A DNA stretch of 64,000 nucleotides from Candidatus Bathyarchaeota archaeon (GTDB taxonomy: Archaea > Thermoproteota > Bathyarchaeia > Bathyarchaeales > Bathycorpusculaceae): NCBI GenBank assembly GCA_963768425.1, contig CAVYHV010000006.1, forward strand, positions 64,001-128,000. The letters are read 5' to 3'. Shown here one piece after another: positions 18,208 through 35,617 of the stretch (its first letter is position 1; each line of letters starts with the position of its first letter). Below the pieces are notes generated by a model. That model was given only the letters and a program-made list of their open reading frames with translations. It had not been told where the DNA came from and searched no databases. The position numbers and the translations under genes were made by a program.

Positions 18208-18491
18208 GATGTAGTCGTTAAGGGACAGTTTGTATTTTGGCTTTCAAAGAAAAAAGCTATTTTGTTTGTTAGGCTAATGCAACCATTAGAAGTTCCATCT
18301 CCATTTTCTAAAATGAAGGTCGCGATTAGCTGTCATTGACCCCAGAACGTTCGGGATTTCTTGTTGCTATTTGGGAAATCAACAAGTTTCAATGTTTCTT
18401 CTCATTGCTTGCTTTAACGGCACATATTAAGTCCTATGGGTCCAGCAGTGACAAGCAATAGCAACTCAGAGAGCAAACCTGTTAGAATACA

Positions 18492-18932
18492 GTGTCAGCT
18501 TTTCGAGTGGATCGAGAAGAGTTGAGGTGTCTAGGTGCGAATATTGCATTAAGAGAATTGAAGGGTATACTAATTAATCGGTGGCTGCCTTTTAGTTTGA
18601 GGCTTTGGAAGTCGTTGGAAGCAAGTTGGAAAACTTTTCATCTTCAAGAACTGAATTGGCTAATATTTTTTCCCAGTACAGGAAATGAAGGCAGAAAATA
18701 CTTGTATTACTCCGTGGAGTTCACAGATCGAACCAAGGGTAATGCAAGAGCAAAAGTCTGTTTAGAAGAAATTGTGGACAATCCTGTGTTCGAAAAAAGT
18801 TATCCTCATTCCGTCGGTTATTTCAAGGGATCAGTTTATGAAAAAGAAGTGTTGGGTTCTTTTTATCTTGAGATTAGAATCATTAAGTGTATTGAGGATT
18901 TTTGGAAATTTCTAAACGATTTGGACATCTAA
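18492..18932 (+). CDS. Hypothetical protein (start uncertain)
   Basis: Open frame with a protein-like C-terminal half (EKSYPHSVGYF..FWKFLNDLDI); no family recognised. Confidence 0.45.
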   Translation: MSAFRVDREELRCLGANIALRELKGILINRWLPFSLRLWKSLEASWKTFHLQELNWLIFFPSTGNEGRKYLYYSVEFTDRTKGNARAKVCLEEIVDNPVFEKSYPHSVGYFKGSVYEKEVLGSFYLEIRIIKCIEDFWKFLNDLDI

Positions 18933-19146
18933 TTAAAGTACTTGACTTCCTGCTTTGTCGATCTTATAATAAATGAGGTAATGAGGAGCTGGGCGACTTG
19001 GGGCTACGATGTGTGCGTTTTTACCATGTCAATCTTCTGAAGCGGAATTCATTGAAAATTTTTTGGTTCTCCCAAGAAGGCAGTCAAAATAAATTCCCTG
19101 TTGAGTGCCTTATGGCGGTGAAAAGCTTTTTCACGAACAATATTTA

Positions 19147-20313
19147 TCATGCCTGTGAGGCTACTGAGGCTATAATTCTTGCTGCTGTGCTCAAATCCAT
19201 CTTTCCTGTGTTCAAAACCAAATCATAATTCGCTTGATCTTCCCAATCGATGTTGTAAAATCTTCTCAGATATTCAGCCGCTGCTTTGTCATTCTCTTCA
19301 ACCAGCTTTAGAGCGTCCTCGCGACTCAATCCGCCACTCTTCATGATTCTTTCAACTCTAACCTCAACAGGAGCAATGATCCTCACGTGAAGCACGCCTA
19401 CTTTATTTTTTAATATTGCTTGTCCGCCTCGTCCTACAATAACTGTTTTTCTTCTGCTAGCCAAGTTATTGATGACCACTTGAATCACAGAGAGGCATTC
19501 ATCTTCGTCAAGGGTTTTACTGATTTGTGCATTGTCTTTCGGGTCAAGGGATGCAGCGACAAGTTTCTTGCGAAGTAAAATTCTATCTACGAGACTCGAA
19601 ACCTTGTAAGTATCTTCAGACAAGTCCGCAATGTTTTCCTCAGAAACACCAAGGCTTTTGGCCACACTTACCATCAAACTCTTGTCGAAATATGCATACC
19701 CAAGAATCTTGCTGACGTCCAATGCAATTTCGTCTCCCCCGCTGCCCACCTGCCTCGAAATCGTTATGACAGTTGGCATGACCCACGCCACTTGTTCCTC
19801 CCCTAATTTATGTTCTAAGATCTTCCTGATTTCCTCATAACTTGGTTCATCATCTGGATTATCGGAAACCCACTTCGAACGTACAATGCCATTTTCATCA
19901 AGGATGAAAATTGCCCTTTTAGCAATTGGGTAACAGCCACTTCCCCAGCAACACGCCACAAATTGGCCCTGACGTCCAGCGAAATCAGGAACCTGCAATC
20001 CGTATGTTTCGAGGACTTCACGCTTGTAGTCGCTCAGTATGGGAAACGGTAATTTGTTCTTCACGGCAAGAATCTTATTCGAGAAAGGAACGTTTACATC
20101 TACTCCAACAATTTGAGCTTTCAAATCAATCAGCCGTGCCATCGAATCTCGGAAAATACAGATTTCTTTAGTGCATGTTGAAGTAAACGCTCCAACGAAG
20201 AAAACTAACACGACTTTTTGCCCTAAAAACTCTTTTAGGTTTCTAGTTATATTTTCCGCGTCGACAAGGCTGAAATCAGGCGCCTTGTCCCCGACTTTGA
20301 CCCCATTTGCCAT
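19147..20313 (-). CDS. Peroxiredoxin (BCP/PrxQ-like) fused to a cytidylate-kinase-like domain
   Basis: N-terminal GDKAPDF, AFTSTCTKEIC, FPILSD, KRAIFILD; C-terminal VITISRQVGSGG, VIVGRGG, YDLVLNT. Confidence 0.85.
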   Translation of the reverse strand: MANGVKVGDKAPDFSLVDAENITRNLKEFLGQKVVLVFFVGAFTSTCTKEICIFRDSMARLIDLKAQIVGVDVNVPFSNKILAVKNKLPFPILSDYKREVLETYGLQVPDFAGRQGQFVACCWGSGCYPIAKRAIFILDENGIVRSKWVSDNPDDEPSYEEIRKILEHKLGEEQVAWVMPTVITISRQVGSGGDEIALDVSKILGYAYFDKSLMVSVAKSLGVSEENIADLSEDTYKVSSLVDRILLRKKLVAASLDPKDNAQISKTLDEDECLSVIQVVINNLASRRKTVIVGRGGQAILKNKVGVLHVRIIAPVEVRVERIMKSGGLSREDALKLVEENDKAAAEYLRRFYNIDWEDQANYDLVLNTGKMDLSTAARIIASVASQA

Positions 20314-20498
20314 GAAAATCAGTTCTCCCTATATATACGAAGAGATACTCTTGTATAAATGGCTAATGCATAGCTAAGAGTGCAGTTGCTTCGGAGTCGA
20401 ACTGTTGATCCTTTGTTATCTGTTGTCCCGGAAAAATACTTTACAAAAAGATTTGAACATCGTATCTCCCAATTCCATTCAAAAAATAAACAGAAACG

Positions 20499-20994
20499 CT
20501 ATTCTGTTTCAGCTGTTCCATGCCATCTTCTTTCCAAGTAAAGAATCAAACTGAAAAGACCTCGGCTGAAAATTACCAAAAGAAGCAATTCGAAGTCTGA
20601 AAAATCTCTAGTAGCCACTGTTCGGATGATTTCTGCGCCTATGAAGAAGTTTAGACTTAACGTTAAGTAACCTGATAAGTAACGAGTAGAGGATGATGCT
20701 TGATAAGGATCTTTAAGTTTAAATTGAATAAATCGGATAACTACCAAAATGGCGCCAAAAGTGATTACACCTCCGCCGAAAAGATAGAGAGCGTATTCGG
20801 CTACAGTTAACACAACAAATATTGAATCGTAAATCGAACCGCCTGAAGTGTAGGTATTTCCCACGAGCAGGTTGACAAATCCCGGATAAACAAAACTAAG
20901 GCGGCGCAAAAAACAGCGGCAACACTTACAACTGATATCAAAATCAGTGCTAAGGAATTGCTTCTCGCTTTTTTTCTAATTGGCTTTCAGCCAT
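20499..20994 (-). CDS. DUF1622-like membrane protein (N-terminus frameshifted; probable ATG 20994)
   Basis: YLTLSLNFFIGAEIIRTV..R..S..L.LE pattern; upstream hydrophobic segment in shifted frames. Confidence 0.7.
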
Positions 20995-21336
20995 AAAATT
21001 TAAGCAACCTGTCCCTAATTTGTTAAGGTCTTTTCCCTTATAAATTTGATTTAAAGGTCGCATGTTTATCGAGGCAAAATTACAACATGTACGAAAGAAC
21101 ATGATCAAAATGCACTCAGCGGTAACTTTTTGAAGCGTTCTTGAACATTAAATCTTAATAAACATCTGTAAAATGGATAGCCATGAAAAACTCAATGAAC
21201 AATTGCAACTTACGCAAAAATTGAAGAATGTTTTAGTCGATTGCTGATTGTGGGGTGCTCACCTACGTGTAGGTTAGGTTCACTTCTTCACGCTGCTGTG
21301 TTTTTCGATCAGGTTTCGATTCCCAGAATGTTGTCG

Positions 21337-22641
21337 CTAGTTGATTTTTGTTACGTGCGTTGAACAGGATATGCATGGATCGTAAGCTCGTACTAACATT
21401 TCTAGTGTTAACTCAATCTCTTTTTGGGGTTTTTCTGCTATCTTGGGGACGAGAGCGTTCATGTCTAATTGAATATTGGCGTGATTTTGGTTAGTTGGGA
21501 TTATGCAGTTGGCTTTGGTGCAGACTCCCTTATCATTGTAGGTGTAATCGTGGAAGAGTATTCCTCTCGGAACTTCTACTGCGCCGACGCCGGTGCCTGC
21601 TTTAACTTTGATTTCTGGTTTGTTGTAGTCGGGTTGAGTGCTCAAGCCAGTAGCTTCAAGTTCGTTTATTAGTCGTATTGAATCTTCAACACTGTGAACT
21701 ACTTCTACAAGTTGCGCTATACTATTCATGAAAGGATTATAGCAAACGGGTGAAAGATTGAATGTTGCAGCTGTCTTTTTAGCCATTGGAGATAATCGAT
21801 CATGATTGAGGTTAAATCTAGCTAAAGCACCAACCATGTATGAATCACGGACATGTTTCGCCCATTTTGCAGTTGATTGTGGAACAATGTACTCATTGGT
21901 GTAAGCAAGGTAGTCTTTCACTGGTGCGCTAGCTGTATCAGATGAGCCGAGTTTCCCGTCGTAAAGCGCGTACTCGTTGGAGTCAGTTAAGGCAATGAAT
22001 TCTGTTTCTCTTTTGAAATTAGGTAATTTATGCGACAAACTTTTGAATAATTCCGCTACTGTCTGAAGATTAGGAATAGAATCTTGCAGTTTATCTCTGA
22101 GAGCAGCCAACTCTTTCATTGACGGAATTTTTGAAAATCCACCTGGAATTAATCTTTGCGGATGCGTCGTTCTTCCGCAAATCAAGTTCGACATTTCATT
22201 TGCAGTCCTGTGAAGTTTAAGAACAATCTTAACCTCTGCAAGATTAGTCGAGGCGAGCGGAATGACCGAACCAACACCCATCAAATCTGGAAGAACGAGA
22301 AAACCCAAATGTAAAATATGGCTCTGCAAGTTTTCAGCATGCAATGCTAGCTTTCTTAGTTTCAAATCTTGATCACTAATTGTCACTCCTAAAGCTGATT
22401 CTGTGGCTTTCAACGAAGCAAGTGTATGACCAATTGAGCAGATACCACATATTCGAGAGGTAACATGATGCAGTTCGTACCATGACCTGCCGACAACCAT
22501 GGCTTCGAAGAATCGTGGTGCTTCTGGAATACTCCACTCACATTTCTCTACGATGCCATCCTTAATTTTTACAGAGATATTTCCATGCCCTTCAACTCTG
22601 GTTACATGGTGGACATTTACTTCAACATTTGAATTTTTCAT
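21337..22641 (-). CDS. hydA: Group 3b [NiFe]-hydrogenase (sulfhydrogenase) large subunit alpha
   Basis: TRVEGHG, RICGIC, EVPRG, DPCISCSTH; ATG 22641 follows GGAGG and overlaps the hydD stop (ATGA). Confidence 0.93.
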   Translation of the reverse strand: MKNSNVEVNVHHVTRVEGHGNISVKIKDGIVEKCEWSIPEAPRFFEAMVVGRSWYELHHVTSRICGICSIGHTLASLKATESALGVTISDQDLKLRKLALHAENLQSHILHLGFLVLPDLMGVGSVIPLASTNLAEVKIVLKLHRTANEMSNLICGRTTHPQRLIPGGFSKIPSMKELAALRDKLQDSIPNLQTVAELFKSLSHKLPNFKRETEFIALTDSNEYALYDGKLGSSDTASAPVKDYLAYTNEYIVPQSTAKWAKHVRDSYMVGALARFNLNHDRLSPMAKKTAATFNLSPVCYNPFMNSIAQLVEVVHSVEDSIRLINELEATGLSTQPDYNKPEIKVKAGTGVGAVEVPRGILFHDYTYNDKGVCTKANCIIPTNQNHANIQLDMNALVPKIAEKPQKEIELTLEMLVRAYDPCISCSTHVTKIN

Positions 22642-23375
22642 CGTTTTGCCTCCTGCCAACCGAAATATAACCTAAACTTGTTTATTGCATCATCAACTGT
22701 TTGACCATATTTTATTAGAACTTCTTTGTGGGAGTTCTCGTTAGGATTATCAACTAATCCGCGGCAGCCCCAGCAGATTGTGCCTTCATTGACGCAGCAT
22801 GAGTTGCACCCGGCCCTAGTTACTGGCCCAACACAATATTGACCACGTTCAAAAGCGCAAACGTTCTCATTTTTTTTGCATTCAACGCAAACAGGATACG
22901 TGGGGGTATCTGGCTTCTTTCCTAGCAACAGTGATTTTACTACCTGCAAGAAATCTTCTCTATCTATCGGGCAACCATAGACGTAGGCATCCACTGGAAT
23001 AACTGCATCTATAGCTCTTGCTGCGTAAGAATCAAACAGTCTTGCGTTTTCTCCATAAACTGTTTTCTTCACGGCATCTAAATCTTTGTAATTCTTGAGG
23101 GAGTTAATTCCACCGATCGCTGCGCATGATCCTATTGCAACGACGATTTTAGCGTTTTTCCTAATTTGTCTTAATCTATCTTCGTCTTGCAGTCTCGTGC
23201 AGGAGCCTTCAACAAAAGCGATATCGTAGTTGTCGCTATGTTCTTTCATTACTTCTCTGAAGCTTACGACGTCGATTTGGCCGAGCAAAGCTAAAAGATC
23301 TTCTTCGAGATTTGCTATTTGCAGTTGGTCTCCTTCGCAGCCTGCAAAATCAAAGAAAGCTGCTTTGGGTTTCAT
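22638..23375 (-). CDS. hydD: Group 3b hydrogenase small subunit delta
   Basis: GCEGD, VEGS, GSCA, GCP, VCVECK, C.GPVTRAGC, CWGCRG. Confidence 0.92.
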   Translation of the reverse strand: MKPKAAFFDFAGCEGDQLQIANLEEDLLALLGQIDVVSFREVMKEHSDNYDIAFVEGSCTRLQDEDRLRQIRKNAKIVVAIGSCAAIGGINSLKNYKDLDAVKKTVYGENARLFDSYAARAIDAVIPVDAYVYGCPIDREDFLQVVKSLLLGKKPDTPTYPVCVECKKNENVCAFERGQYCVGPVTRAGCNSCCVNEGTICWGCRGLVDNPNENSHKEVLIKYGQTVDDAINKFRLYFGWQEAKR

Positions 23376-25288
23376 TATAGTGCCTCCGGTACACCTTTAA
23401 TTTTAGAATAGTTAAACACTGGGCCATCTTTACAAACATAGATTTGGTTGATTTGACAGTGTCCACATTTCCCAACTCCACATTTCATTCTCCGCTCCAG
23501 AGACATAATTATGTGGTCGTCTGGAACATTTCTCTTTTTCAAGTCTGCAATAACGAACTTGTACATAATTGGCGGTCCGCAAATCACGGCATAAGTCTTT
23601 TCGGGATCAATCTTGATTTGAGGAATCAAAGTTGTTATTACTCCTGTGTTGCCTGTCCAAGCCTCAGTTTCTGGGCATCTGTCAACTGTTGGCATGAAAT
23701 CTACATCACTCCTCTTAGATAGCGCAAGAAGTTCATCGGCAAAAAGTAGTTCTTTTGGTTCTTTACAGCCATAAAGCAGAGTGACTTGACCATAGTCTTT
23801 TCGGTTGTCAAGAACAAAATTAAAGAATGACCGCAACGGCGCGAGCCCAAGACCCCCCGCGACAAACAATAAATCCTTACCTTTCAGGGATTCCGTGTCA
23901 AAACCGGTTCCGAATGGTCCCCGTATTCCCACCTTATCACCGATTTTGAGCGAATGAACTTTTGTAGTTACGTTGCCCAGTTTGCGAACGCACAGTTCAA
24001 ATGTCTCTTTCTTAGTAGGTGGCGATGAAATTGAAATTGGAGCTTCACCTATTCCGAACACTGAAAGTTCAACAAATTGTCCCGGCTTGTGGCCTAAAAC
24101 TAAACCGTCATCTAGCTTGATTTCAAATAACGTTTCCATAGCTGTCATAGGCTGTTTTCTTATGATTGTTGCAAGTTTAGGAACATAATCTATGTTGCCT
24201 TCGGTTTGAATCTTGATATCCGGTGTCGATACAGTCGTCACTTGCCCATAATTCACGCTTTCATGGTACATATCGTTGAATAGGTTGACGGGACTTGCAA
24301 TATCGGGAAGGCAGTTTGATGAGCATCTGCCGCAACCAACGCACGAAATGAATCCGAATCGGTCATACAGATATTTGCCTTTTTTAAAGTACCTGTGTCG
24401 GTATCTTGTCGGTCTTGTCGCACGGAAGTTTTCACCTGAAGCGACTTTCGCAAAGTCTTCAAGTAAGCATCCGTCCCATATTCTCACTCTTTCGCCCTGT
24501 TCAAGTGATAAGTCAGGGTTGTCTTTGACGTCAAAACAGTAGCATGTTGGACAAACAAGGACGCAGGAGCCGCATGCTAAACACTTCTCCGAATGTTTCT
24601 CCCAAAAACTGCTTTCTGTGTAAAATTTTGTCAGCATTTCCGGAATTAGTTCTGTAGGAAAATCCAGTTTTTGTTGGCTCATCATCATTACTTCACGTTT
24701 TTTCTGACCGACCAACTGGGTGTCCCTTGCAAGAGCGTCAGTGACGTTTTTGGCATATTTATCTAAAAGCTTTTCACCCTTTTCCGAACCAATGTTGATT
24801 ACATACCGGTTTCCTACGTCAGTAAGCATTAAATCATAGCCATATTCGACCGTGGCGCTACCCATGTACGGCGCAAAACACCATTTTGACATTTTTTGAA
24901 TGTTGACACCGATAATTATTGATGCTTTCCGTTTTTCAAAATAATATGGGTCTGATTTTGTTTCGCTGAAGATTTCATCCATGTGAAGAAGGGCTACTAT
25001 GTCATATGGGTGAACGCCGACTAGCACCATGGGCTTGATTTCAGACGGGCTTTTAGCAGAAAAACTCTTTCCCACGTTATAAGTAACTAAAGTTTCTCTC
25101 TGAGGAAAGAAGTACTTCTTCGGCGGAAGAAGAGTAACGTCATAATCCATCCGCAGCTCACTGGCAGATTCTAAAGGTCCAAAAGCGAATTTATCTCCTT
25201 TCGCCTTGACGCCTACAACGTTCAATGAACCATCTTTTATTAAAGAATTGACAAACTGAGCAAAATTTTCTTTTGATATAACGCGCAT
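23375..25288 (-). CDS. Fused sulfhydrogenase beta (Fe-S) and gamma (FAD/NAD(P)-binding) subunits
   Basis: Beta: CLACGSCVLVCPTCYCF, WDGC, CVGCGRC..C. Gamma: PGQF, GEAPISISS, RGPFG, AGGLGLAP, CGPPIM, MKCGVGKCGHC, CKDGPVF. One uninterrupted frame. Confidence 0.9.
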   Translation of the reverse strand: MRVISKENFAQFVNSLIKDGSLNVVGVKAKGDKFAFGPLESASELRMDYDVTLLPPKKYFFPQRETLVTYNVGKSFSAKSPSEIKPMVLVGVHPYDIVALLHMDEIFSETKSDPYYFEKRKASIIIGVNIQKMSKWCFAPYMGSATVEYGYDLMLTDVGNRYVINIGSEKGEKLLDKYAKNVTDALARDTQLVGQKKREVMMMSQQKLDFPTELIPEMLTKFYTESSFWEKHSEKCLACGSCVLVCPTCYCFDVKDNPDLSLEQGERVRIWDGCLLEDFAKVASGENFRATRPTRYRHRYFKKGKYLYDRFGFISCVGCGRCSSNCLPDIASPVNLFNDMYHESVNYGQVTTVSTPDIKIQTEGNIDYVPKLATIIRKQPMTAMETLFEIKLDDGLVLGHKPGQFVELSVFGIGEAPISISSPPTKKETFELCVRKLGNVTTKVHSLKIGDKVGIRGPFGTGFDTESLKGKDLLFVAGGLGLAPLRSFFNFVLDNRKDYGQVTLLYGCKEPKELLFADELLALSKRSDVDFMPTVDRCPETEAWTGNTGVITTLIPQIKIDPEKTYAVICGPPIMYKFVIADLKKRNVPDDHIIMSLERRMKCGVGKCGHCQINQIYVCKDGPVFNYSKIKGVPEAL

Positions 25289-25340
25289 CTTTCACGCTTC
25301 TCCACTTACATAATGCAAGCTTTTCCTTGCTTTTTCATAG

Positions 25341-25363
25341 GAATAAATGTGGTACATTTATTC
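25341..25363. promoter_or_regulatory. Putative operator between the divergent hydrogenase operons
   Basis: Perfect 10-3-10 inverted repeat GAATAAATGT-GGT-ACATTTATTC. Confidence 0.55.
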
Positions 25364-25601
25364 TTTTCCGCAATAAAGATGAAGAAATCCCATGGAAATA
25401 CCATATGTAAGGATATATACGGTCTATACAACGGTTTTCTAATCCCCCTTACAATTTATGACATTTATTTTTGAAAACATCTTAAGGACAGGTTTCCAAT
25501 GAATTCCTTTAAATTGTAACCCCTAACCTTTTATATTAGTAGACTTCAAAAGTGGCTTCGTTAAGTAAAGATTCCAACAAACTTAAAGGAGGATCAAATG
25601 T

Positions 25602-26093
25602 TTGTCTGACAGAGATAACAGACGTTCGTTGCTAGAAAAAGTTTTGAAAGAACATAATTACGAAGAAAGTGCTCTTTTAGAGATATTGCATCGCGCTCAA
25701 GAAATTTATGGTTATTTGGATAAGGATTTGCTTATGGATGTTTCTGGGTCCCTCAACATTCCGCCGAGCCATGTTTTCGGCGTAGCGACTTTTTATAGCT
25801 TCTTCAAGTTTAAACAGCCGGGGCAACATGTAGTGACTGGTTGCTTAGGAACTGCTTGCTATGTAAAAGAGGTTGAACAAATTTTTGAGGCAGTTGAAAA
25901 AGAATTTAATGTTAAACGCGGTGGCTCCACTTCTGACGGAAAACTTTCTCTGCTTGTAACACGGTGCATAGGCGCATGTGCTATGGCACCTAACATCATG
26001 ATTGACGAGGAAGTTGTTGGCAAAGCCACAAAAGAAATAGTTGTAGAAAAAATCAAAAATGTACTCGGAGGGGTTAAAACTGAAACTCGATGA
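25602..26093 (+). CDS. hoxE: Hox bidirectional hydrogenase subunit E (NuoE-like, 2Fe-2S)
   Basis: LHRAQEIYGYL, GVATFYSFF, CLGTACYV, RCIGACAMAP. Confidence 0.92.
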   Translation: MSDRDNRRSLLEKVLKEHNYEESALLEILHRAQEIYGYLDKDLLMDVSGSLNIPPSHVFGVATFYSFFKFKQPGQHVVTGCLGTACYVKEVEQIFEAVEKEFNVKRGGSTSDGKLSLLVTRCIGACAMAPNIMIDEEVVGKATKEIVVEKIKNVLGGVKTETR

Positions 26094-27716
26094 TCTCCAA
26101 AGAATAGCCGAGCAAGAAGTTGATTTCCAAAGAGCTTACAAATACAGAATTAACGTTTGCTGCTCCAGTGGGTGTGTTCCCTTCGGAGCTCTCAAGGTGT
26201 TGAAAGCATTCGAAGATGCAGTAAAAGAATTACGCGTTGAAAAGGAATGTAAGGTCGCCCGCACTGGCTGCATAGGCACGTGTTCTGTAGGACCTGCGGT
26301 GCTTATTGAACCAGGTGACTACCTATATCAAAACGTTACACCCGAAAAAGTCAAAGAAATAGTTCGTGATCACATCGTTCTTAACTTACCGGTCAAAAGT
26401 ATGTTGTACCAAAATGAAGCTTACTTCAAAAAACAGCATCGCTTAGTTTTGCGAAACGCAGGAAAAATTGATCCTTTGAGAATTCAAGACTACATTTCCG
26501 CTGGCGGCTACTCAGCTATAGCAAAATGCCTTGCAACTATGACTTCACAAGGCGTAATTTATGAGGTTAGAACCAGTGGTCTTAGGGGTCGTGGTGGTGC
26601 AGGTTTCCCAACAGGCCAAAAATGGGCACTCGTGTCAAGATCACACAGCACGCCCAAGTTCATAGTTGCAAACTTGGACGAAGGTGATCCAGGTGTCTTC
26701 GCAAATAGAACTTTGGCTGAAGCTGATCCACACGCTATTCTTGAAGGCATGCTCATCGCTGCTTACGCCGTTGGTGCAGAAAAAGGTTACATTTACATTC
26801 GATCCGAGTATCCGCTAGCAATTCAGACTTTGCAAAAAGCTATTGCTCAAGCAAAATCAATGACGTTGCTGGGCGATAACATTCTTGAAATGGGATCGCT
26901 CAAGTTTGACCTCGAACTGAGGTTCGGCGCAGGCGCATTTGTTGCAGGAGAGGAAACAGCCATTCTTGCCTCAGTAGAAGGTCAAAGAGCAATGCCTCGT
27001 CCGCGTCCACCATATCCAGCGAATTCTGGCTTATGGCAAAAACCGACGCTTATACAGAATGTTGAAACATTCGCCAACATACCGCAGATAATACAAAATG
27101 GCGGCGCATGGTTCGCAAAAGTGGGCACGCCGAAATGTTCTGGAACCAAATGCTTCTCATTGACAGGCAAAGTTAACAATCCTGGATTAATTGAAGTGCC
27201 GATGGGGATCACTCTTAGAGAAGTGGTTTTCGACATTGGCGGGGGTGTAGCTGATGGAAGGAAATTCAAAGCCGTCCTAGTAGGCGGTCCGTCAGGGGGT
27301 TGTCTTCCTGACACATTGCTTGATCTCCCAATCGATTACGAATCACTAACAAAAGCTGGGGCAATAATGGGTTCTGGTGGCATAGTTGTGCTCGACGATG
27401 AATCGTGCATGGTTGACACTGCAAGATTCTTCACCGACTTCTGCGTGGACGAATCATGCGGCAAATGCACACCATGCCGAGCAGGCTTAGCACGGGTCAA
27501 AGAAATATACGACCAAATCACCACAGGCAACGGAAAAATGGAAGATATCAACACTCTAGAGAAATCAGGCGTTTTTATCCGGGACGCTAGCCTATGCGGT
27601 CTCGGACAAACAGCGCCTAATCCAGTTCTGACTACTCTTCGCTACTTCAAGGATGAATACCTAAAACATATCGTTGAAAAGAAATGCGAAGCAGGTAAAT
27701 GCTTCAAAAAGCATAG
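26059..27716 (+). CDS. hoxF: Hox diaphorase subunit F (NuoF-like, FMN/NADH). Reads through into hoxU as assembled; 27716 is the inferred true stop
   Basis: CCSSGC..GCIGTC N-terminal domain, SGLRGRGGAGFPTG, DEGDPG, GEETA, ESCGKCTPCR, SLCGLG. Confidence 0.85.
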
Positions 27717-27732
27717 AGGAGGAAGAATAAAC

Positions 27733-28443
27733 GTGACATTACCAAATCCTCTTAAGATTAAAATTGACGGTGTTGAAATGTCAGTTCCTGAAGGCACCAC
27801 TATCCTGAAAGCAGCCAAAGCGAATGGCATTACAATTCCAACAATTTGCTCGCTTGAAGGTTTAACCCCATACGGTGGCTGCCGACTTTGCCTCGTTGAA
27901 ATCAGTGGTTCACCGAAGCTTTTCCCTGCGTGCACAACACCTGTGAGTCCAAACATGGAAGTCACCACCAACTCCGATCGGCTAAAAGATCACCGCAAGA
28001 TGGTGGTACAAATGCTTCTAGCTGAAAGAACTCACATTTGCGCGGTCTGCGTCGCTGACGACCACTGCGAGCTACAATCCATGGCCAAAGAGCTTGGAGT
28101 TGAACATGTAATGTTTGAGAGGAACTGGACGGCTGAACCGGTCGATTCCACTCACGACTTCTTGGTTATTGACCGAAACCGTTGCATTCTATGTACTCGG
28201 TGTATTCGTGTGTGCGACCAAATTGAGGGTGTCCATACTCTTGACCTCAAAATGAGAGGGAAAGATGCCCAGGTAATCATGGATCTTGATGAGCACTGGG
28301 CTAATTCTTGCTCATGTACATCCTGCCGCAAATGCGCAAAAGTCTGTCCTGTAGGAGCCATTTACATTGAGGGAGAACCAATTGACCACACCAAACGTAA
28401 AGACATAGCAGAGTTCGTCCTGACAAGGAGGCAAAACAAATGA
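27733..28443 (+). CDS. hoxU: Hox diaphorase subunit U (in frame with hoxF as assembled; own GTG start after GAGGAGG)
   Basis: IPTIC..GGCRLC..PAC, HICAVC..C, RCILCTRCIRVC, CTSCRKCAKVCP. Confidence 0.85.
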   Translation: MTLPNPLKIKIDGVEMSVPEGTTILKAAKANGITIPTICSLEGLTPYGGCRLCLVEISGSPKLFPACTTPVSPNMEVTTNSDRLKDHRKMVVQMLLAERTHICAVCVADDHCELQSMAKELGVEHVMFERNWTAEPVDSTHDFLVIDRNRCILCTRCIRVCDQIEGVHTLDLKMRGKDAQVIMDLDEHWANSCSCTSCRKCAKVCPVGAIYIEGEPIDHTKRKDIAEFVLTRRQNK

Positions 28444-28982
28444 CTGGCAACGCGAAAGTTAGGGTCGCAACGGTTTGGCTTAGCGGCTGTTCAGGTTGCC
28501 ATATGTCCTTCCTTGACCAAGATGAGCGACTTTTTGATTTAGCAAAGAAAATACAGTTAGTTTATAGCCCAATAGCCGATGTGAAGGAATTTCCTGAAAA
28601 TGTTGACGTCACACTTATCGAAGGAGCAATCGCAAATGAAGAGCAACTCCGCATGCTCGAGAAGGTTAGGTCTCGAACAAAAGTTTTGATTTCTCTCGGT
28701 GACTGCGCCGTCACAGGAAACGTAACGGCCTTAAGAAACTCGTGGCGTCACAGCGACCAAGCAGTGCTGAAGCGGGCATACAAGGAAAAGTCTGATTTAA
28801 ATGCAGCAATCCCTACGGACGTGCCTAAACTTCTGATTAAAGCTCGTCCGCTCCATGAAGCTGTTAAAGTTGATTTCTTCATCCCTGGGTGTCCGCCACA
28901 TGCGGATCTGATTAACTACGTTTTAACCGAACTTTTAGCAGGCCGAACGCCAAGAATGGAGGGTAAAACAAAATATGGTTAA
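28440..28982 (+). CDS. hoxY: Group 3d hydrogenase small subunit
   Basis: WLSGCSGCHMS, GDCAVTGNV, PGCPP; short single-cluster form. Confidence 0.93.
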   Translation: MTGNAKVRVATVWLSGCSGCHMSFLDQDERLFDLAKKIQLVYSPIADVKEFPENVDVTLIEGAIANEEQLRMLEKVRSRTKVLISLGDCAVTGNVTALRNSWRHSDQAVLKRAYKEKSDLNAAIPTDVPKLLIKARPLHEAVKVDFFIPGCPPHADLINYVLTELLAGRTPRMEGKTKYG

Positions 28983-30420
28983 AGCTGAAAAAAACGCCAA
29001 ACAAATCGTAATAAGTCCCATCACAAGGATAGAGGGGCACGCCCAAGTATCCATATGTTTAAACGATGATGACTCTGTCAAAGAAGCCAGATTCCAAGTC
29101 ACTGATTTCCGAGGCTTCGAAAAATTCACTGAAGGGCGACCTTTTTATGAAATGCCCAGCATTACGTCGAGGGCTTGCGGAATCTGCCCAGTAAGCCACT
29201 TGTTAGCTTCCGCCAAAGCATGCGATGCCATCGTCGGAGTCAGCCCACCGCCAACCGCAATAAAGCTACGTCGCCTAATGCACATGGGTCAAATGATCCA
29301 ATCTCACGCGTTGAATTTCTATCACCTATCAGCACCCGATCTGATTCTCGGATTCGACTCTGACCCAGCGACAAGAAACGTTTTCGGCTTAATGGAAAAA
29401 GATCCTAAATTGGCACTTCAAGGTATTAAGCTTCGCAAATTTGGTCAAGAAATAATAGATAAAGTCGCTGGCAAAAGAATACACTCAAGTGAATGGATTC
29501 TCCCGGGCGGTGCAAAATGGCCGCTAAGCAAATACAAAGCGGATTATTTGAAAGCTTATTTGCCCGAAGCTTTAGACAGTGCACAGAAAACTTTAACGTT
29601 GTATAAAAATTGGCTGGTTAACTTTGACGATGAAGTGGAGAACTTCGGAAACTTCCCAAGTTACTATATGGGTTTGGTAACCTCTGACGGAGGACTTGAA
29701 CATTACGATGGCACCTTGACTATAATGGATAACGACGGCAAAGTCGTTGGCCGATGCATCGATCCGACAACATACAGTGACTTCATCGGTGAAGCAGTTG
29801 AACCCTACTCGTTCATGAAGTTTCCATACTTCAAAGCAGTTGGTTATCCAGAAGGTTTCTACAGAGTTGGTCCATTAGCAAGACTTAATGTTGCATCACA
29901 TTGCGATACGCCCCTTGCAGACATCGAATTGAAGCAATTCAAAAAACTCGGCAAGAACGGAGTAGTACAAAGCACTTTCCACTACCATTACGCTCGACTT
30001 GTGGAGTTACTTTACTGCGTTGAAAAGGCGCGGGAGTTGCTGGAAGACCCAGAAATCCTATCCGAACACGTAACATCTAAGGCAATGGTGAACCATTACG
30101 AAGGCGTCGGCGTCGCTGAAGCTCCAAGAGGCACCCTTATCCACCACTATAAAGTCGACCCGCAAGGCATGATCACATGGAATAACATGATTATCGCAAC
30201 AGAACACAACAACATCGCTTACAACAAAGCAATAACGCAGGTCGCCAAAAAATACGTCAAAGCAAAGGCGCTGCAAGAAGGCATGCTGAACCGTGTTGAA
30301 GCTGTGATCCGAGCGTTTGATCCGTGTCTGAGTTGCGCCACGCACGCAGTTGGGAAGATGCCACTTGACATAAAGCTGTTCGATGCAAAAGGCAAACTGA
30401 TCGACCGCAAGGTAAGATAG
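28975..30420 (+). CDS. hoxH: Group 3d [NiFe]-hydrogenase large subunit
   Basis: [35 protein letters not shown] plus cleavable tail. Confidence 0.93.
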
Positions 30421-30683
30421 AACCCTTCTTTCCCTATTTGTTTTTCTTTCTCATCTATTCATGACTTCGAGAAACTATCGTTGCGTTGAAGCCAGCCAGC
30501 TCTTTTGATGAATAAACCAATTGCATTTTTGCACTTACATCGAAACGACGGTTTTTGGTTTTTCTTCAACAAAGTCGTGTCCATGGAAGTTTCTGCTTTG
30601 TATTCACTGAACATTTATGTATTTGACTTAGGCATTCAAATTAAATTAAGCACTCAGGGTGCTATGGGAGCAGTCAAAGTGAG

Positions 30684-31247
30684 TTGCAAATGACTGAGAC
30701 AGTACCTACTTCATCGGGCAAGGAGCCAATAAAAGCATCAGAACTTGACCCCAAATTCAAATATCAACTTCTAAAAATGCACGGAAGCGAAAAAATCCTC
30801 AAATGCTTCCAATGTGGAACCTGCACCTCCGACTGCCCCGTCGCACGATATAGCGACAGTTACCGCCCAAGAACTCTAATCCACATGGCTCAAATGGGCC
30901 TAAAAGATCGCGTGCTCAAAAGCGACACATTATGGTTATGCGCAGCCTGCTTCACATGCACAGACCGATGCCCCCAAGACGTCGAAGTTGCAAGCGTAAT
31001 TCGGGTTTTCCGCAATTTAGCCGTAGAAAATGGCTGTGTACCACAAGTTTTCAAAGATCAAACCGCAAGCTTGCTTGAATCCGGCTACGCCTTCAAAATT
31101 CCCGAGTTAAGAATTAAAAAACGTGAAACCCAGGGGCTTCCACCCTTGCCGAAAGGCAACGCAGAAAAAGTTAAGAAAGCGCTTAAAGGCGTAAGATTTA
31201 TCGATGTCAATCAGAAACCATCGGGAGGACAAGCTGCTGGGCAATAA
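30684..31247 (+). CDS. hdrC: Heterodisulfide reductase subunit C
   Basis: CFQCGTCTSDCP and WLCAACFTCTDRCP. Confidence 0.93.
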   Translation: MQMTETVPTSSGKEPIKASELDPKFKYQLLKMHGSEKILKCFQCGTCTSDCPVARYSDSYRPRTLIHMAQMGLKDRVLKSDTLWLCAACFTCTDRCPQDVEVASVIRVFRNLAVENGCVPQVFKDQTASLLESGYAFKIPELRIKKRETQGLPPLPKGNAEKVKKALKGVRFIDVNQKPSGGQAAGQ

Positions 31248-32130
31248 ATTCCTCATTTTCCTCGGTTGTGCTATCCCCTACCGTGTTTCAGCCTATGAAA
31301 TTTCGGCGCGCAAAGTCTTAGCTAAACTCGGCGTTGAACTGGTTGAGATGCCCGAGTTCAACTGTTGCGGCTTACCTTTTGACCCTGTAAGCCATGAAAC
31401 AATGCTTGTTCTTGCAGCAAAAAACTTGGCGATCGCGGAACAGCAATGCTTAAACATACTTACTCTTTGTCCAGGCTGCGCTGGGTCCTTAAAGAAAACT
31501 AACAAAATCCTCAAAGAAGACAAAGCTTTGAAAGAACAGATTAACTGTCATCTCAAGGAAGTTGGGTTGGAATTCAAAGGAACCATCGAGGTAAAGCATC
31601 TTTTGCAGCTTCTGAAGGAAGATGTAGGCGTAGAAAAAATCAAAGCCTCAGTCACCAAACCTCTTACGATGCTTAAAGTTGCGGAACATAACGGATGCCA
31701 CATTCTAAGACCCAAAGAATTCATAGGCTTCGACGACCCCGAAGATCCGCAAACCCTTAAAATGCTGATTGAAGCGACGGGAGCCACATGCCTTGACTAC
31801 ATCGACGAAACAGAGTGCTGCGGAGCACCCAGTGTCGGAGTCAGCGACAAAATTGCGTTGCAACTCGCAAGGGACAAACTGAACCACGTTAAGATGGTCG
31901 AAGCACAAGCTTTAATCACGATTTGCCCATTTTGCCATATAATGTACGATACGAACGAGCTGCGAATAGAGAAAACATTTAATGAAACCTATGGGATTCC
32001 CATACTCCATTACCCACAACTACTCGGATTGGCAATGGGCTTGCCTCCTGAAGAATTAGCCTTCAGCGAACTCCGAGTAAACGCATCAAAAATAATAAAG
32101 CAAGTAACCGAGGAAGCAAAAAATGAGTAA
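31204..32130 (+). CDS. hdrB: Heterodisulfide reductase subunit B (start possibly ~31237)
   Basis: FLGCAIP, two CCG motifs (FNCCG..CPGC; HNGCH..ECCG..CPFC), PILHYPQLLGLAMG. Confidence 0.94.
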   Translation: MSIRNHREDKLLGNKFLIFLGCAIPYRVSAYEISARKVLAKLGVELVEMPEFNCCGLPFDPVSHETMLVLAAKNLAIAEQQCLNILTLCPGCAGSLKKTNKILKEDKALKEQINCHLKEVGLEFKGTIEVKHLLQLLKEDVGVEKIKASVTKPLTMLKVAEHNGCHILRPKEFIGFDDPEDPQTLKMLIEATGATCLDYIDETECCGAPSVGVSDKIALQLARDKLNHVKMVEAQALITICPFCHIMYDTNELRIEKTFNETYGIPILHYPQLLGLAMGLPPEELAFSELRVNASKIIKQVTEEAKNE

Positions 32131-33112
32131 GAACAAGTTAAAAATAGCCTTCTACTGGGCTGCAAGTTGCGGAGGCTGCGAAATAGCGGTCTTAGACATA
32201 AACGAGAAAATCCTTGATGTAGTACAAATCGCCGACGTTGTTTTTTGGCCGGTAGCCTTAGACATCAAGTACAAAGATGTTGAAGCCATGGCTGACAAAT
32301 ACATAGACATAACATTCTTCAACGGCTCAATACGCAACTCAGAACAAGAGCACATGGCTAAACTTCTCAGACAAAAATCCAAAACTCTCGTTGCTTTCGG
32401 GTCATGCGCCCACCAGGGAAGCGTGCCCGGATTGGCAAACTTGAATGACAAGAAAGAAATTTTCGAGCAAGTTTACGTAAAAGACAAGTCAAACGTGAAC
32501 CCGGAACACGCCATGCCCAAAACTCAAACCCAAGTCAAAGAAGGCACTCTTAGAATCCCAGAGTTCTATGACACGGTAAAAACTTTGGCGCAAACAGTCG
32601 ACGTTGACTATTACCTGCCTGGTTGTCCACCTCCCGTTAAACTAATCGCGGGTGCGATTGACGCCATAGCAAGCGGCAAGCTCCCTCCAAAGGGTTCCGT
32701 TCTTGCCCCGCTTAAAGCAGTATGTGACGAATGCCCAAGAAAACGAGAAAACAAGAAAATCGGTAAACTCTATCGCGTCTACGAGAAAATCCCCGAGCCA
32801 GAAAAATGCTTGCTTGAACAAGGCATCATCTGTATGGGACTTGCAACTAGAAGCGGCTGCGGTGCACAATGCTTGAACGTTGATATGCCTTGTACAGGCT
32901 GCGGCGGACCAGCTCCAAATGTGCCAGAGCAAGGTGCAGCAATGATTTCTGCTTTAGCTTCTATTCTCGGGTATGACGGTGAACCAGGGAAAACTAAATA
33001 CACCGAAAAAGAGATAGAAGAGTTGTTAAGCCAAGTGAAAGATACCGTTGGCACATTTTACATGTACAGTTTGCCAGCGTCAATCTTGAGAAGAAAGGTG
33101 ATTAAGAAATGA
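32123..33112 (+). CDS. mvhG: Group 3c F420-non-reducing hydrogenase small subunit
   Basis: WAASCGGCE, FGSCA, PGCPP, VCDECPR, CLLEQG..CMG.ATRSGC, PCTGCGGP. Confidence 0.92.
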   Translation: MSKNKLKIAFYWAASCGGCEIAVLDINEKILDVVQIADVVFWPVALDIKYKDVEAMADKYIDITFFNGSIRNSEQEHMAKLLRQKSKTLVAFGSCAHQGSVPGLANLNDKKEIFEQVYVKDKSNVNPEHAMPKTQTQVKEGTLRIPEFYDTVKTLAQTVDVDYYLPGCPPPVKLIAGAIDAIASGKLPPKGSVLAPLKAVCDECPRKRENKKIGKLYRVYEKIPEPEKCLLEQGIICMGLATRSGCGAQCLNVDMPCTGCGGPAPNVPEQGAAMISALASILGYDGEPGKTKYTEKEIEELLSQVKDTVGTFYMYSLPASILRRKVIKK

Positions 33113-34563
33113 AAGAATTAGTTATAGACCCTATAACACGTCTTGAAGGACATGGAAACGTATCCATATTCCTTAACGACAATGGCGAAGTTGAAAACGC
33201 ATACCTCAAAGTTCCAGAACTGAGAGGTTTTGAGAAATTCTGCATAGGCAGAAAAGCTGAGCTTATGCCGCAGTTAACCACAAGAATTTGCGGTGTTTGT
33301 CCAGTTGCACACCACTTTGCAGCAGTTAAAGCCTTAGATGTCGCATTCCATGTTGAACCAACGTCTGCAGCAAAGAAACTTCGGGAACTGATGTATAGTG
33401 CGTACTACATCTACGACCATACCCTCCACTTCTATTATCTCGGGGGTCCGGACTTTATAGTTGGACCAGATGCACCGCCGGAAAAACGCAACATCCTCGG
33501 CGTCATCGAAAAAGTCGGAATGCCAATCGCGAAGGAAGTCATAAAACACAGAGCCTTTGGTCAAAAAATCACTGAAATCATCGGTGGAAAAGCAACTCAC
33601 CCGGTATGTGGTCTACCAGGCGGAATCAGCAAGCCTCTAAGCGAAGAAAACAGGCAACAAATCGAAACGATGGCAGCTTCCTGCGTTGACTTTGCTCAGT
33701 TTACGCTCAAAATCTTCCATGACATTGTACTTGGGAACACCCAATACGTTGAGTTAATCAAGAGTCAAGCTTACACTATGCCAACCTACTACATGGGCAC
33801 GGTCGATGATAAAAACAAAGTCAACTTTTATGACGGCAAAATCCGCGTTGTCGACCCATCAGGAAAAGAATTCCTTAAATTCGAATCCCAAGACTACCTT
33901 AAACACATCGCCGAACACGTTGAAGAATGGACCTACAGCAAATTTCCATACCTCAAAGCAGTCGGCTGGAAAGGACAAGTTTCAGGAAAAGACAGCGGAG
34001 TCTACCGCGTTGGTCCACTGGGACGATTAAACGCTTCAGACGGCATGGCAACACCACTGGCTCAGGCAGAATACGAAGTAATGTATAAAACACTAGGTGG
34101 CAAACCGGTCCACAGCACCTTAGCTTTCCACTGGGCGCGCTTAATTGAATTGCTCTATGCAACTGAGCGAACAATGGAACTCGTGAAAGACCCCGAAATC
34201 ACCAGCACAAACGTCCGCAACAAACCAGGAGAACCAGGCGAAGGAGTAGGTATAGTGGAGGCAGCAAGAGGCACACTAATCCACCACTACGTCTTAGACA
34301 AAGACGCGCTCGTGAAAGACGTAAACCTCATTGTCGCGACAACCAATAATTACCCAGCGATCTGCATGAGTATACGCGACGCAGCAAAAGGTTTAATCCA
34401 CGAAGGCAAAGTCGACCAAGGCATACTGAACAAGGTTGAAATGGCTTTCAGAGCTTACGACCCATGCTTCGGATGCGCAACACACGCCGCAGTAGGACAA
34501 ATGCCGCTTACCGTAGAACTCTACAACGCCGACAAACAGCTAATTGACTCTGTCAGCCGCTAA
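33109..34563 (+). CDS. mvhA: Group 3c [NiFe]-hydrogenase large subunit
   Basis: DPITRLEGHG, RICGVCPVAHH, EAARGTL.HHY, RAYDPCFGCATH. Confidence 0.93.
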   Translation: MKELVIDPITRLEGHGNVSIFLNDNGEVENAYLKVPELRGFEKFCIGRKAELMPQLTTRICGVCPVAHHFAAVKALDVAFHVEPTSAAKKLRELMYSAYYIYDHTLHFYYLGGPDFIVGPDAPPEKRNILGVIEKVGMPIAKEVIKHRAFGQKITEIIGGKATHPVCGLPGGISKPLSEENRQQIETMAASCVDFAQFTLKIFHDIVLGNTQYVELIKSQAYTMPTYYMGTVDDKNKVNFYDGKIRVVDPSGKEFLKFESQDYLKHIAEHVEEWTYSKFPYLKAVGWKGQVSGKDSGVYRVGPLGRLNASDGMATPLAQAEYEVMYKTLGGKPVHSTLAFHWARLIELLYATERTMELVKDPEITSTNVRNKPGEPGEGVGIVEAARGTLIHHYVLDKDALVKDVNLIVATTNNYPAICMSIRDAAKGLIHEGKVDQGILNKVEMAFRAYDPCFGCATHAAVGQMPLTVELYNADKQLIDSVSR

Positions 34564-34714
34564 GTTATACCCATTTTCTTAAGGGCAACTTTTTATTTTC
34601 TTTTGCCCAGTTCTTTCCATATTATTCGCTTGCCAGTGAATTCTTCTGATGTCCCGAACATGTTAGGGTAAACGCTTATGTGCATTGTTGGCGCCTACTT
34701 TAACTTGATTCAAA

Positions 34715-35074
34715 ATGCAGCGGCAACCGCCTAACCCAGAACACAAAAGAATGAAGCGTGAAAAGAAAACCATAGGCTACATGGTTGACATTTACTGCAA
34801 GAATCACCATGGAACCCATGGCGTGCTCTGCCCCGAATGCACGCAGTTCAAAGAATATGCTTTTCTGCGGCTTGATAAGTGCCCATTTCAAGACAAAAAA
34901 AGCACGTGCGGCAAATGCCTCATCCACTGCTACCAACCAGATATGAAAGAAAAAGTCAAAACGGTCATGCGTTACTCGGGACCCAGAATGCTCTTGCACC
35001 ACCCAACGCTTGCTCTGCATCATGCGTGGGACAGCCACCGAAAACCGCCCAAATTGGCGAAGAAAGTTAACTGA
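34715..35074 (+). CDS. YgbA-family (nitrous-oxide-stimulated promoter) Cys-rich protein
   Basis: REKKTI..M..IYC..HH..LC..C, RLDKCPF..K..C..C..HCY, VMRYSGPRML.HHP. Confidence 0.88.
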   Translation: MQRQPPNPEHKRMKREKKTIGYMVDIYCKNHHGTHGVLCPECTQFKEYAFLRLDKCPFQDKKSTCGKCLIHCYQPDMKEKVKTVMRYSGPRMLLHHPTLALHHAWDSHRKPPKLAKKVN

Positions 35075-35131
35075 GCGAGCGGCAACGTTTTTCAAGCTTT
35101 ACGTCATTTCTTTTTTTGTGGAGGTGCTTCA

Positions 35132-35617
35132 ATGGCTTGTTTAATTGAAAAGGATCTCAAATCCTGGCTGGTTGATGCACAAAAGGTTGCGGTGGCTGGG
35201 ATCGGCAACCCTATCAGAACGGACGATTACGTCGGGTTAAAAATCGTGGAAAATCTCAAGGGCAAGCTTCCTCCAGCTGTTCTTCTTCTCGAGGCAGAAA
35301 CAGTTCCCGAGAGCTACTTCTCTGATATAGAGGAGTTTCATCCTTCGCATGTGTTACTGATTGATGCTGCCTATTTGGGATGTAAGCCTGGCGAAGCCCG
35401 CCTCGTCGATGCTGAAAAAATCGCAGGTTCCCCCGCAGTCACTACCCATCTGTTGCCTCTGCAAGTTTTTTGCGAGTATGTTAAGCAAGCTACTGGCGCA
35501 AAGATCGCCTTACTCTTGATTGAGCCGAAAAACATGGAGTTCGGTGAAGGTTTAACTGCTCCCGTACAAGCTGCGGCGGAGCGATTGACAAAGTTCCTGC
35601 TCAAGGCGCTTGGTTGA
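35132..35617 (+). CDS. hycI: Hydrogenase maturation endopeptidase (HycI-like)
   Basis: GIGNPIRTDDYVG, ETVPE, IDAA, TTHLLPL, FGEGLT. Confidence 0.88.
   Translation: MACLIEKDLKSWLVDAQKVAVAGIGNPIRTDDYVGLKIVENLKGKLPPAVLLLEAETVPESYFSDIEEFHPSHVLLIDAAYLGCKPGEARLVDAEKIAGSPAVTTHLLPLQVFCEYVKQATGAKIALLLIEPKNMEFGEGLTAPVQAAAERLTKFLLKALG

Follow-up and report, generated by a model that had tools for sequence, protein, structure and literature searches.

Three group-3 [NiFe]-hydrogenase operons beside hdrCB in a peat Bathyarchaeon: a probable lineage-specific juxtaposition of separate enzymes

Three operons for [NiFe]-hydrogenases lie side by side within about 14 kb of a Candidatus Bathyarchaeota genome (assembly GCA_963768425.1). 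They are found in a 64,000-nucleotide stretch of contig CAVYHV010000006.1 (positions 64,001 to 128,000), referred to here as the window, whose numbering is used for all coordinates given without a prefix. Between 21337 and 35617, hydBG-hydD-hydA on the minus strand are divergent from hoxE-F-U-Y-H on the plus strand, which are followed on that strand by hdrC-hdrB-mvhG-mvhA, ygbA and a maturation protease gene. We consider it probable that these are three separate cytosolic group-3 [NiFe]-hydrogenases, each with its own partners, and that their adjacency is a lineage-specific juxtaposition, as opposed to a fixed device of several enzymes. What is established is the gene content, the architecture and family relations of the subunits, and the distribution and contiguity of the genes; overall, the region is an ordinary juxtaposition of known modules, present in a minority of one genus. 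The host is a peat or soil Bathyarchaeon, and its relatives among public genomes are metagenome-assembled genomes (MAGs) of Bathyarchaeia or Bathyarchaeota from peat, bog, fen and soil.

Genes were called from a listing of open reading frames (ORFs) together with Pfam and NCBIfam models, and all 13 could be assigned domains or families. An earlier note on this DNA, made from the sequence alone, had named the genes with their coordinates and had stated that the cysteine motifs of the three large subunits (LS1, LS2 and LS3, encoded by hydA, hoxH and the mvhA-like gene, respectively) are intact. Both statements are confirmed by the ORFs, Pfam and NCBIfam: each large subunit keeps an N-terminal RxCGxC and a C-terminal DPCxxCxxH.

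The first enzyme can be assigned to group 3b from its nearest alpha chains and from the co-encoded alpha, delta, beta and gamma modules. LS1 (440 amino acids [aa]; 21337-22659, minus strand; Pfam NiFeSe_Hases) has sulfhydrogenase alpha chains of Pyrococcus and Thermococcus as its top four matches among solved structures in the PDB (225-233 bits, including sulfhydrogenase 1 alpha chains 9nez_D at 232.8 and 5yxy_A at 228.8), with MvhA next at 173 bits. Its motifs read RICGIC and DPCISCSTH. The small subunit HydD (245 aa; 22638-23375, minus strand; Pfam Oxidored_q6) has sulfhyd_HydD as its best NCBIfam model, at 178.6 bits, which is under the equivalog cut-off. HydB and HydG are fused (23375-25288, minus strand; Pfam Fer4_22, FAD_binding_6, NAD_binding_1 and DHODB_Fe-S_bind), with the ShyB/HydB model on residues 4-335 and HydG/ShyC on residues 367-634; the fusion is present in all 14 related loci that hold the gene. 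The G+C content of the 3b operon and its upstream flank (18001-26000) is 40-42%, against 45-48% in most of the window, and the 3b proteins are conserved at 74-92% in the genus survey (one outlier, 58%) against about 79-96% for the Mvh proteins. The lower G+C content and weaker conservation are compatible with a separate history of this module.

An AT-rich intergenic region of 313 bp (25289-25601) separates hydBG from hoxE. The second enzyme is assigned to group 3d, as a NuoE/F/G-like diaphorase (HoxE, F and U) and a short HoxY are co-encoded with hoxH. HoxE (163 aa; 25602-26093, plus strand; Pfam 2Fe-2S_thioredx) is a NuoE-like [2Fe-2S] subunit with HoxE as its best NCBIfam model (190.3 bits against a cut-off of 224). 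The window presents hoxF and hoxU as a single 794-aa ORF (26059-28443, plus strand; Pfam 2Fe-2S_thioredx, Complex1_51K, SLBB, NADH_4Fe-4S, Fer2_4, NADH-G_4Fe-4S_3 and Fer4_Nqo3). In this ORF, a further 2Fe-2S_thioredx domain, separate from HoxE, lies at HoxF residues 24-104, and the HoxU model scores 299.8 bits on residues 567-793. HoxY (28440-28982, plus strand) has 180 aa and Oxidored_q6 as its only Pfam domain; it is close in length to the 179-aa HydS of the hydrogenase structure 7t2r. LS2 (HoxH; 481 aa; 28975-30420, plus strand) is identified by HoxH identity and by its clade. It shows 53.7% identity with Acaryochloris marina HoxH (pREB4) and 43.1% with Cupriavidus necator HoxH (pHG1), and scores 531 bits with 7t2r_D, 451 with 5xf9_D and 380 with MvhA. 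In a careful maximum-likelihood tree, LS2 falls in a 10-row clade with both of these HoxH anchors (ultrafast bootstrap 100; Shimodaira-Hasegawa-like approximate likelihood-ratio test [SH-aLRT] 98). This placement agrees with Loh et al. 2021 (PMC7886697), who reported hoxEFUYH in Bathy-6 and placed it as the sister group of phototroph Hox.

The electron partner of this archaeal Hox enzyme is predicted to be NAD(H), possibly together with ferredoxin. According to a 2026 preprint, HoxEFUYH of Synechocystis bifurcates between NAD and ferredoxin by means of HoxE and the N-terminal cluster of HoxF, and both HoxE and the N-terminal HoxF cluster domain are present here.

The hoxEFUYH content given in the earlier note holds, with a correction to the single hoxF-hoxU ORF, which exists here only because an additional A near 27715 abolishes the stop codon of hoxF. 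This A is absent from three related loci (L013, 99.6% identical over HoxF, L017 and L014), where the junction consists of a stop codon, a GGAGG box and a GTG or ATG hoxU start, and it is missing in both of the metagenome DNA contigs that cover the place. The two genes are in separate frames in 18 of 23 Hox loci; the remaining five give one high-scoring segment pair (HSP) across the junction, a result at HSP level only. We therefore read the operon as a normal hoxEFUYH, and its one-ORF state as the result of a 1-nucleotide insertion in the assembly. Other genes are frame-split as well: EF-2 is in two ORFs (41510-43619), an aldehyde:ferredoxin oxidoreductase in two overlapping ORFs (49785-51705) and NAPRTase in three (3067-4463), and the sole NuoD-like gene of the genome (NuoD/Complex1_49kDa-like; G000:C15:107750-108709) is in four pieces. 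So many split genes indicate that indel errors are frequent in this assembly.

An assembly so prone to indels, with split genes in the window and an extra A at the hoxF/hoxU junction, raises the question of whether mis-assembly has brought together operons that stem from separate genomes or loci. We regard this as scarcely credible. Indels do not create joins, and the gene order of the window (3b divergent from Hox, then hdrCB-mvhGA) recurs on a single 2.35-Mb contig of a related genome (G003), in L013 and L017 and, by coordinates, in genomes G069 and G074. Both junctions are also spanned by short-read DNA contigs from two unrelated metagenome studies, X1 and X2, that are approximately 97% identical to the window (X2 records 25 and 26; X1 records 3 and 5): the hydBG/hoxE gap by X2 (23369-25660) and X1 (25087-26042), and the 263-bp hoxH/hdrC gap (30421-30683) by X2 (25631-30959) and X1 (29012-30959). 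With independent genomes and contigs spanning both junctions, the chimeric join that the earlier note had considered is excluded for practical purposes.

The third enzyme is encoded directly downstream of hdrC and hdrB. HdrC (187 aa; 30684-31247, plus strand) matches Pfam Fer4 dicluster families and NCBIfam CoB_CoM_SS_C (125.6 bits; cut-off 160), and HdrB (308 aa; 31204-32130, plus strand) has two CCG domains, matched by Pfam CCG in two stretches and by TIGR03288 (288.4 bits; cut-off 345). The hdrB gene is the sole CCG-domain (PF02754) locus found in the genome that carries the cluster (G000). The small subunit (329 aa; 32123-33112, plus strand) is of MvhG type: its best solved match is MvhG 5odc_E, at 229.8 bits and over the full length (residues 6-322 on chain residues 2-294 of 299), other full-length matches are 9sw2_E (217.3 bits) and 9sfi_I (197.6 bits), and HydS of 7t2r matches its N-terminal part only (87 bits). 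For LS3 (484 aa; 33109-34563, plus strand) the NCBIfam model VhuA scores 425.8 bits against a cut-off of 800, and close relatives are named 'F420-non-reducing hydrogenase large subunit' by the Joint Genome Institute. Its scores among solved structures are ambiguous, with 392 bits for 7t2r_D, 370 for MvhA 5odc_F, 369.5 for 9sfi_g and 316 for 5xf9_D.

In the tree mentioned above, LS3 lies in its own 15-row clade (100/99), with the Hox anchors outside; this clade also excludes those that best match MvhA 5odc_F (P0162) or the Vhu chain 9sfi_g (P0131). LS2 and LS3, which are 42% identical, are in separate clades, each supported at 100/98-99. The tree has 71 rows, comprising 66 full-length representatives from a library of 1.8 billion proteins, the three window proteins and the two named HoxH sequences; 74 of 150 representatives fell outside 400-520 aa and 10 of the remaining 76 were partial matches, and these were left out. 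Among the 66 full-length representatives, none came near the VhuA cut-off (best 474.8 bits against 800), and cluster look-ups returned almost no names. The homologous-protein search returned only close Bathyarchaeia relatives, the best 120 all being at least 82% identical. A grouping of LS3 with Mvh/Vhu-like clades, seen in a quick tree (SH-aLRT 88), was dropped; it was not recovered in the careful tree, and a constrained search did better. A MAG titled Methanocella (locus L071) was not used as an MvhA anchor, its [NiFe] gene set resembling that of Bathyarchaeia relatives.

The earlier note had placed the three enzymes in groups 3b, 3d and 3c. The first two assignments stand. The third enzyme is best described as Mvh-type, or "3c", by its MvhG-like small subunit and its linkage to hdrCB and not by a tree, as a placement of LS3 with Mvh over Hox was not obtained. 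The three large subunits do not fall into one subgroup, in agreement with that note.

No mvhD or hdrA gene is present in the cluster. Further on in this contig, at a distance of approximately 200 kb (L096:4467-7879; G000:C6, about 296.4-299.9 kb), a 324-aa polyferredoxin gene is followed by an 855-aa ORF for HdrA with a C-terminal MvhD (FlpD) domain, whose true start is probably near residue 50. In the figure legend of PMC11697101, MvhD/HdrA, MvhB and HdrCB are likewise apart in a complete Bathy-6 MAG. A second MvhD-containing protein is encoded on contig C30 beside a GltD/NfnB-like gene. This protein (L097:4774-8219) has 407 aa, two FlpD/MvhD stretches and 2x[4Fe-4S], with a DHODB-type Fe-S protein and the GltD/NfnB-like flavoprotein as neighbours; the locus may be an MvhD-linked Nfn/sulfide-dehydrogenase-like module. 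In some relatives there is a second mvhG-mvhA pair, approximately 88% identical, that has neither hdrCB nor the protease gene beside it (L074, L075 and two places on G099:C5).

Since adjacency had led the earlier note to suggest subunit sharing, hybrid complexes across operons have to be weighed, such as HoxEFU or HydBG feeding MvhAG, or HdrBC serving HoxYH. Only the adjacency itself and the 42% identity of LS2 and LS3, with their similar C-terminal tails, argue for such complexes, and we judge them very improbable. Each hydrogenase dimer has a full set of partners encoded alongside it, many relatives carry a module on its own, and the docking surfaces would differ, HoxY being a short one-domain protein and MvhG of the long three-cluster type.

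The distribution of the modules among close relatives bears on the preferred reading of a lineage-specific juxtaposition. Two samples were used. The first comprises 80 loci, each an LS3 homologue of 84-99% identity with flanks of up to 10 kb, and the second 95 genomes of the genus that are at least 85% complete. The genome counts, here and below, are hand tallies among the matches listed. The samples share members and cannot count as independent (loci L014 and L017 belong to genomes G070 and G069, respectively). Upstream of mvhA, hdrC-hdrB-mvhG is found in 71 of the 80 loci; of the nine exceptions, six are truncated by the end of a contig. Hox is immediately upstream of hdrC in 18 loci, 3b is adjacent in 11, and both are adjacent in only three (L013, L017 and L014). 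Among the 62 loci whose upstream sequence extends for 9 kb or more, 38 have neither.

At the genome level, LS3-type proteins are encoded in 74 of the 95 genomes, LS2-type in at least 64 and LS1-type in 46. All three types are found in 29 genomes (with broken copies in G081, G094 and G016), and at least one is absent in the other 66. The three types lie within 14 kb of each other in six genomes and in three gene orders: that of the window in G000, G003, G069 and G074, Hox-Mvh-3b in G070, and Hox-3b-Mvh in G071. In two more genomes (G068 and G088) they are spread more loosely over 21-27 kb, and the remaining 21 three-type genomes have the operons scattered or on separate contigs. The divergent 3b/Hox pair also occurs without Mvh (G008, G065 and G066). 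Hdr is the stable element in this picture, and the modules mvhGA, hox and hyd are all optional and tend toward the same neighbourhood. As close relatives gain, lose and reshuffle these modules independently of one another, we read the adjacency as a lineage-specific juxtaposition. The earlier note had considered that the three-way cluster might be widespread; it exists beyond the window, in several orders, and is confined to a minority of six of the 95 genomes.

The same note had proposed a hub linking H2 to several redox pools. In this interpretation, the three enzymes are kept and expressed together, and an internal H2 pool equilibrates NADPH (through 3b), NADH with or without ferredoxin (through 3d), and ferredoxin and thiol/disulfide (through Mvh-Hdr), which amounts to an H2-mediated transhydrogenase. 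We consider this unlikely. Its attraction is that the predicted partners of the three enzymes differ, that 29 genomes hold all three types and six to eight of these hold them within 14-27 kb, and that Hox would itself link NAD and ferredoxin if the Synechocystis preprint holds. The absence of at least one type from most of the genomes, the varying order among the six tight clusters and the dispersal of the operons in 21 of 29 three-type genomes count against it, as does the predicted status of the cofactor specificities. In addition, co-occurrence of 3b, 3c and 3d is commonly reported for genomes from anoxic sediment, where they are the most abundant hydrogenases in MAGs (PMC6472368).

Upstream sequences and transcripts bear on the same question. 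No 8-mer reached a frequency of 40% among the upstream regions in all three sets (hydBG, 14 loci; hoxE, 23; hdrC, 74). The TATA-like word CTTTTATA, with a presumed promoter role, is found upstream of hoxE in 17 of 23 loci, and hdrC has its own conserved TATA-like word in 35 of 74; these words would fit separate promoters for each operon and count against the hub. In one study, two RNA libraries gave contigs that span parts of hydA, hydD, hydBG, hoxU, hoxY, hoxH, hdrB, mvhG and mvhA. Being about 97% alike, they come from a close relative. They are a weak hint that all three operons are transcribed in the same two samples, as the hub interpretation would have it. Their cover is low at intergenic bins, where the DNA runs continue, itself no more than a weak hint.

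The presence of a single protease gene per genome is a further point in favour of that interpretation. The maturation endopeptidase (161 aa; 35132-35617, plus strand; Pfam HycI; TIGR00072, 102.8 bits, above the cut-off) is the only PF01750 match in the host genome (91% complete). A search for HycI-family genes gave exactly one in each of the nine hydrogenase-bearing genomes covered (G000, G003, G069, G070, G071, G074, G008, G065 and G066), and none in the two hydrogenase-free genomes searched (G006 and G044). Of the 77 loci in which the flank is long enough, 73 have the gene downstream of mvhA; in G003, it is approximately 1 Mb away from the cluster. The tails that follow the last histidine, 24-25 residues in LS2 and LS3, are similar in these two; LS1 has five residues. 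HypD is present on contig C14. It is plausible that one protease serves two or three of the hydrogenases, with shared maturation, and the protease is the only shared component identified among the three operons. Less likely again than the hub is that the island is a selected unit, with one endopeptidase, joint transcription in peat and an H2 cycle among NADPH, NADH/ferredoxin and thiol/disulfide that would act as an H2-mediated transhydrogenase in an archaeon without the usual ones.

Several observations weigh against the reading of three separate enzymes in juxtaposition, or against parts of it. The clustering is above random: six to eight of the 29 three-type genomes hold the operons within 14-27 kb. 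Some selection for proximity may thus have acted, although these genomes are kin and do not count as independent cases. The RNA contigs carry neither level nor strand, and an RNA library can hold DNA. As for the third enzyme, LS3 is not placed with methanogen Mvh in the careful tree, in which the backbone joining the clades is without resolution, and the approximately unbiased (AU) test did not reject a union of LS3 with the Hox side (p-AU 0.946), which had a better likelihood than the quick tree. NCBIfam equivalog scores of the Hyd, Vhu and Hdr subunits are all under the curated cut-offs. Finally, HdrB and HdrA-MvhD are present in all five of the searched relatives without LS3, two of which (G006 and G044) gave no [NiFe] match. 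The presence of Hdr in relatives without hydrogenase indicates that Hdr is independent of Mvh here, and the HdrA-MvhD homologues of [NiFe]-free relatives imply that HdrA must also take electrons from another donor. Neither the hub nor the subunit sharing proposed in the earlier note is supported: the modules are present or absent independently in the 95 genomes, each operon has its own electron-transfer subunits, and Hdr occurs in hydrogenase-free relatives.

With the juxtaposition of separate enzymes preferred, cofactor use, complex formation and the use of a single protease for all three are what we infer from sequence. HydA-HydD with the fused HydB-HydG would be a 3b enzyme of sulfhydrogenase type with NAD(P)(H) as its electron partner, and HoxEFUYH a cyanobacterial-type bidirectional (3d) enzyme whose partner is NAD(H), possibly with ferredoxin too. 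MvhA-MvhG most likely docks through the MvhD domain of HdrA-MvhD, giving a bifurcating complex of Mvh-Hdr type that would reduce ferredoxin and a disulfide with H2; for Bathy-6-A, too, the disulfide substrate is given as unidentified by Loh et al. (PMC7886697). The adjacency of the three modules, in what is a variable hydrogen/heterodisulfide neighbourhood, is perhaps favoured by shared maturation.

Hox, Mvh and Hdr have each already been reported in Bathyarchaeia. Among 14 catalytic subunits reported for Bathyarchaeota, ten are 3c and one is 3d (PMC9534799); BA1 is listed with 3c, 3c and 4g (PMC5037454), and 3c and 3d hydrogenases in Bathyarchaeota also appear in PMC7886697. The earlier note knew of no account of the three-way cluster, and we likewise came across no publication in which the three operons are treated as a single Bathyarchaeia cluster, supplementary material aside; Fig. 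S5 of PMC7886697, a group-3 tree, and Text S4 of PMC11697101 may bear on the 3c/3d placement and on earlier accounts of gene order. Bathyarchaeia are among the most abundant archaea of anoxic soils and sediments, and the literature cited has not settled how they keep ferredoxin, NAD(P)H and thiols in balance. Members of one genus in peat can have as many as three soluble hydrogenases together with Hdr, as modules that are frequently exchanged, which is of use in annotating such genomes and in choosing targets for expression studies. No new enzyme type or coupling principle is revealed. The points of some interest are the modular gain and loss beside hdrCB, the HydB-HydG fusion, the separate clade of LS3 and the single protease.

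Other genes in and around the cluster were noted. Between mvhA and the protease gene lies a gene for a small Cys-rich protein of the YgbA ('nitrous oxide-stimulated promoter') family (119 aa; 34715-35074, plus strand; Pfam YgbA_NO, 144.4 bits), which is found downstream of mvhA in 34 of 77 loci. The cluster is followed by purE, purC and two purP genes. A 388-aa ORF (19147-20313) immediately beyond the 3b operon combines a peroxiredoxin (AhpC/TSA) domain with one that resembles cytidylate kinase, and a homologue is present in L056 and L068. A DDE transposase (DUF772 / DDE_Tnp_1) is close to the window end (61518-63014).

Each of the three enzymes can be compared with characterized systems. The first resembles the soluble sulfhydrogenases (SHI/SHII) of P. 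furiosus and T. kodakarensis in that the alpha, delta, beta and gamma modules are all present, that LS1 is nearest, over its full length, to alpha chains 9nez_D, 5yxy_A and 9e15_B, and that the best NCBIfam models are ShyA/HydA, HydD, HydB and HydG. It differs in that beta and gamma are joined in one protein of 637 aa, that scores are far under the equivalog cut-offs (260 against 700), and that the LS1 tail after the C-terminal histidine is very short, at five residues.

The second enzyme shares with cyanobacterial-type HoxEFUYH the order E-F-U-Y-H, the HoxE subunit, the N-terminal thioredoxin-like [2Fe-2S] domain of HoxF and the GGPSG motif in HoxF. Unlike that type, it has an archaeal host, and its 'AFM' motif reads VFA; 'AFM' and GGPSG are among the motifs named for bifurcating enzymes in the 2026 preprint. 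Among solved structures, LS2, LS3 and the HoxF part (652.7 bits) all score highest with the bifurcating NiFe-HydABCSL of Acetomicrobium mobile (PDB 7t2r; Feng et al. 2022), and both systems have an N-terminal [2Fe-2S] domain in the flavoprotein and a separate NuoE-like [2Fe-2S] subunit. However, the HoxF alignment ends at HydB residue 536 of 597, and hoxF of relatives stops a few codons later, indicating that the C-terminal domain with the B3 and B4 [4Fe-4S] clusters is absent. The HydB C-terminal domain with these clusters is described as a combination unique to bifurcating hydrogenases (PMC8880783).

The third enzyme is comparable to MvhAGD-HdrABC of Methanothermococcus thermolithotrophicus (5odc). 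MvhG is matched over its full length and LS3 scores 370 bits with MvhA, hdrC and hdrB are directly upstream, and an MvhD domain and HdrA are encoded in the genome, a likeness of genomic linkage only. In contrast to that complex, MvhD is fused to HdrA some 200 kb away, with a polyferredoxin, LS3 forms a separate clade, and Hdr is kept in relatives without Mvh.

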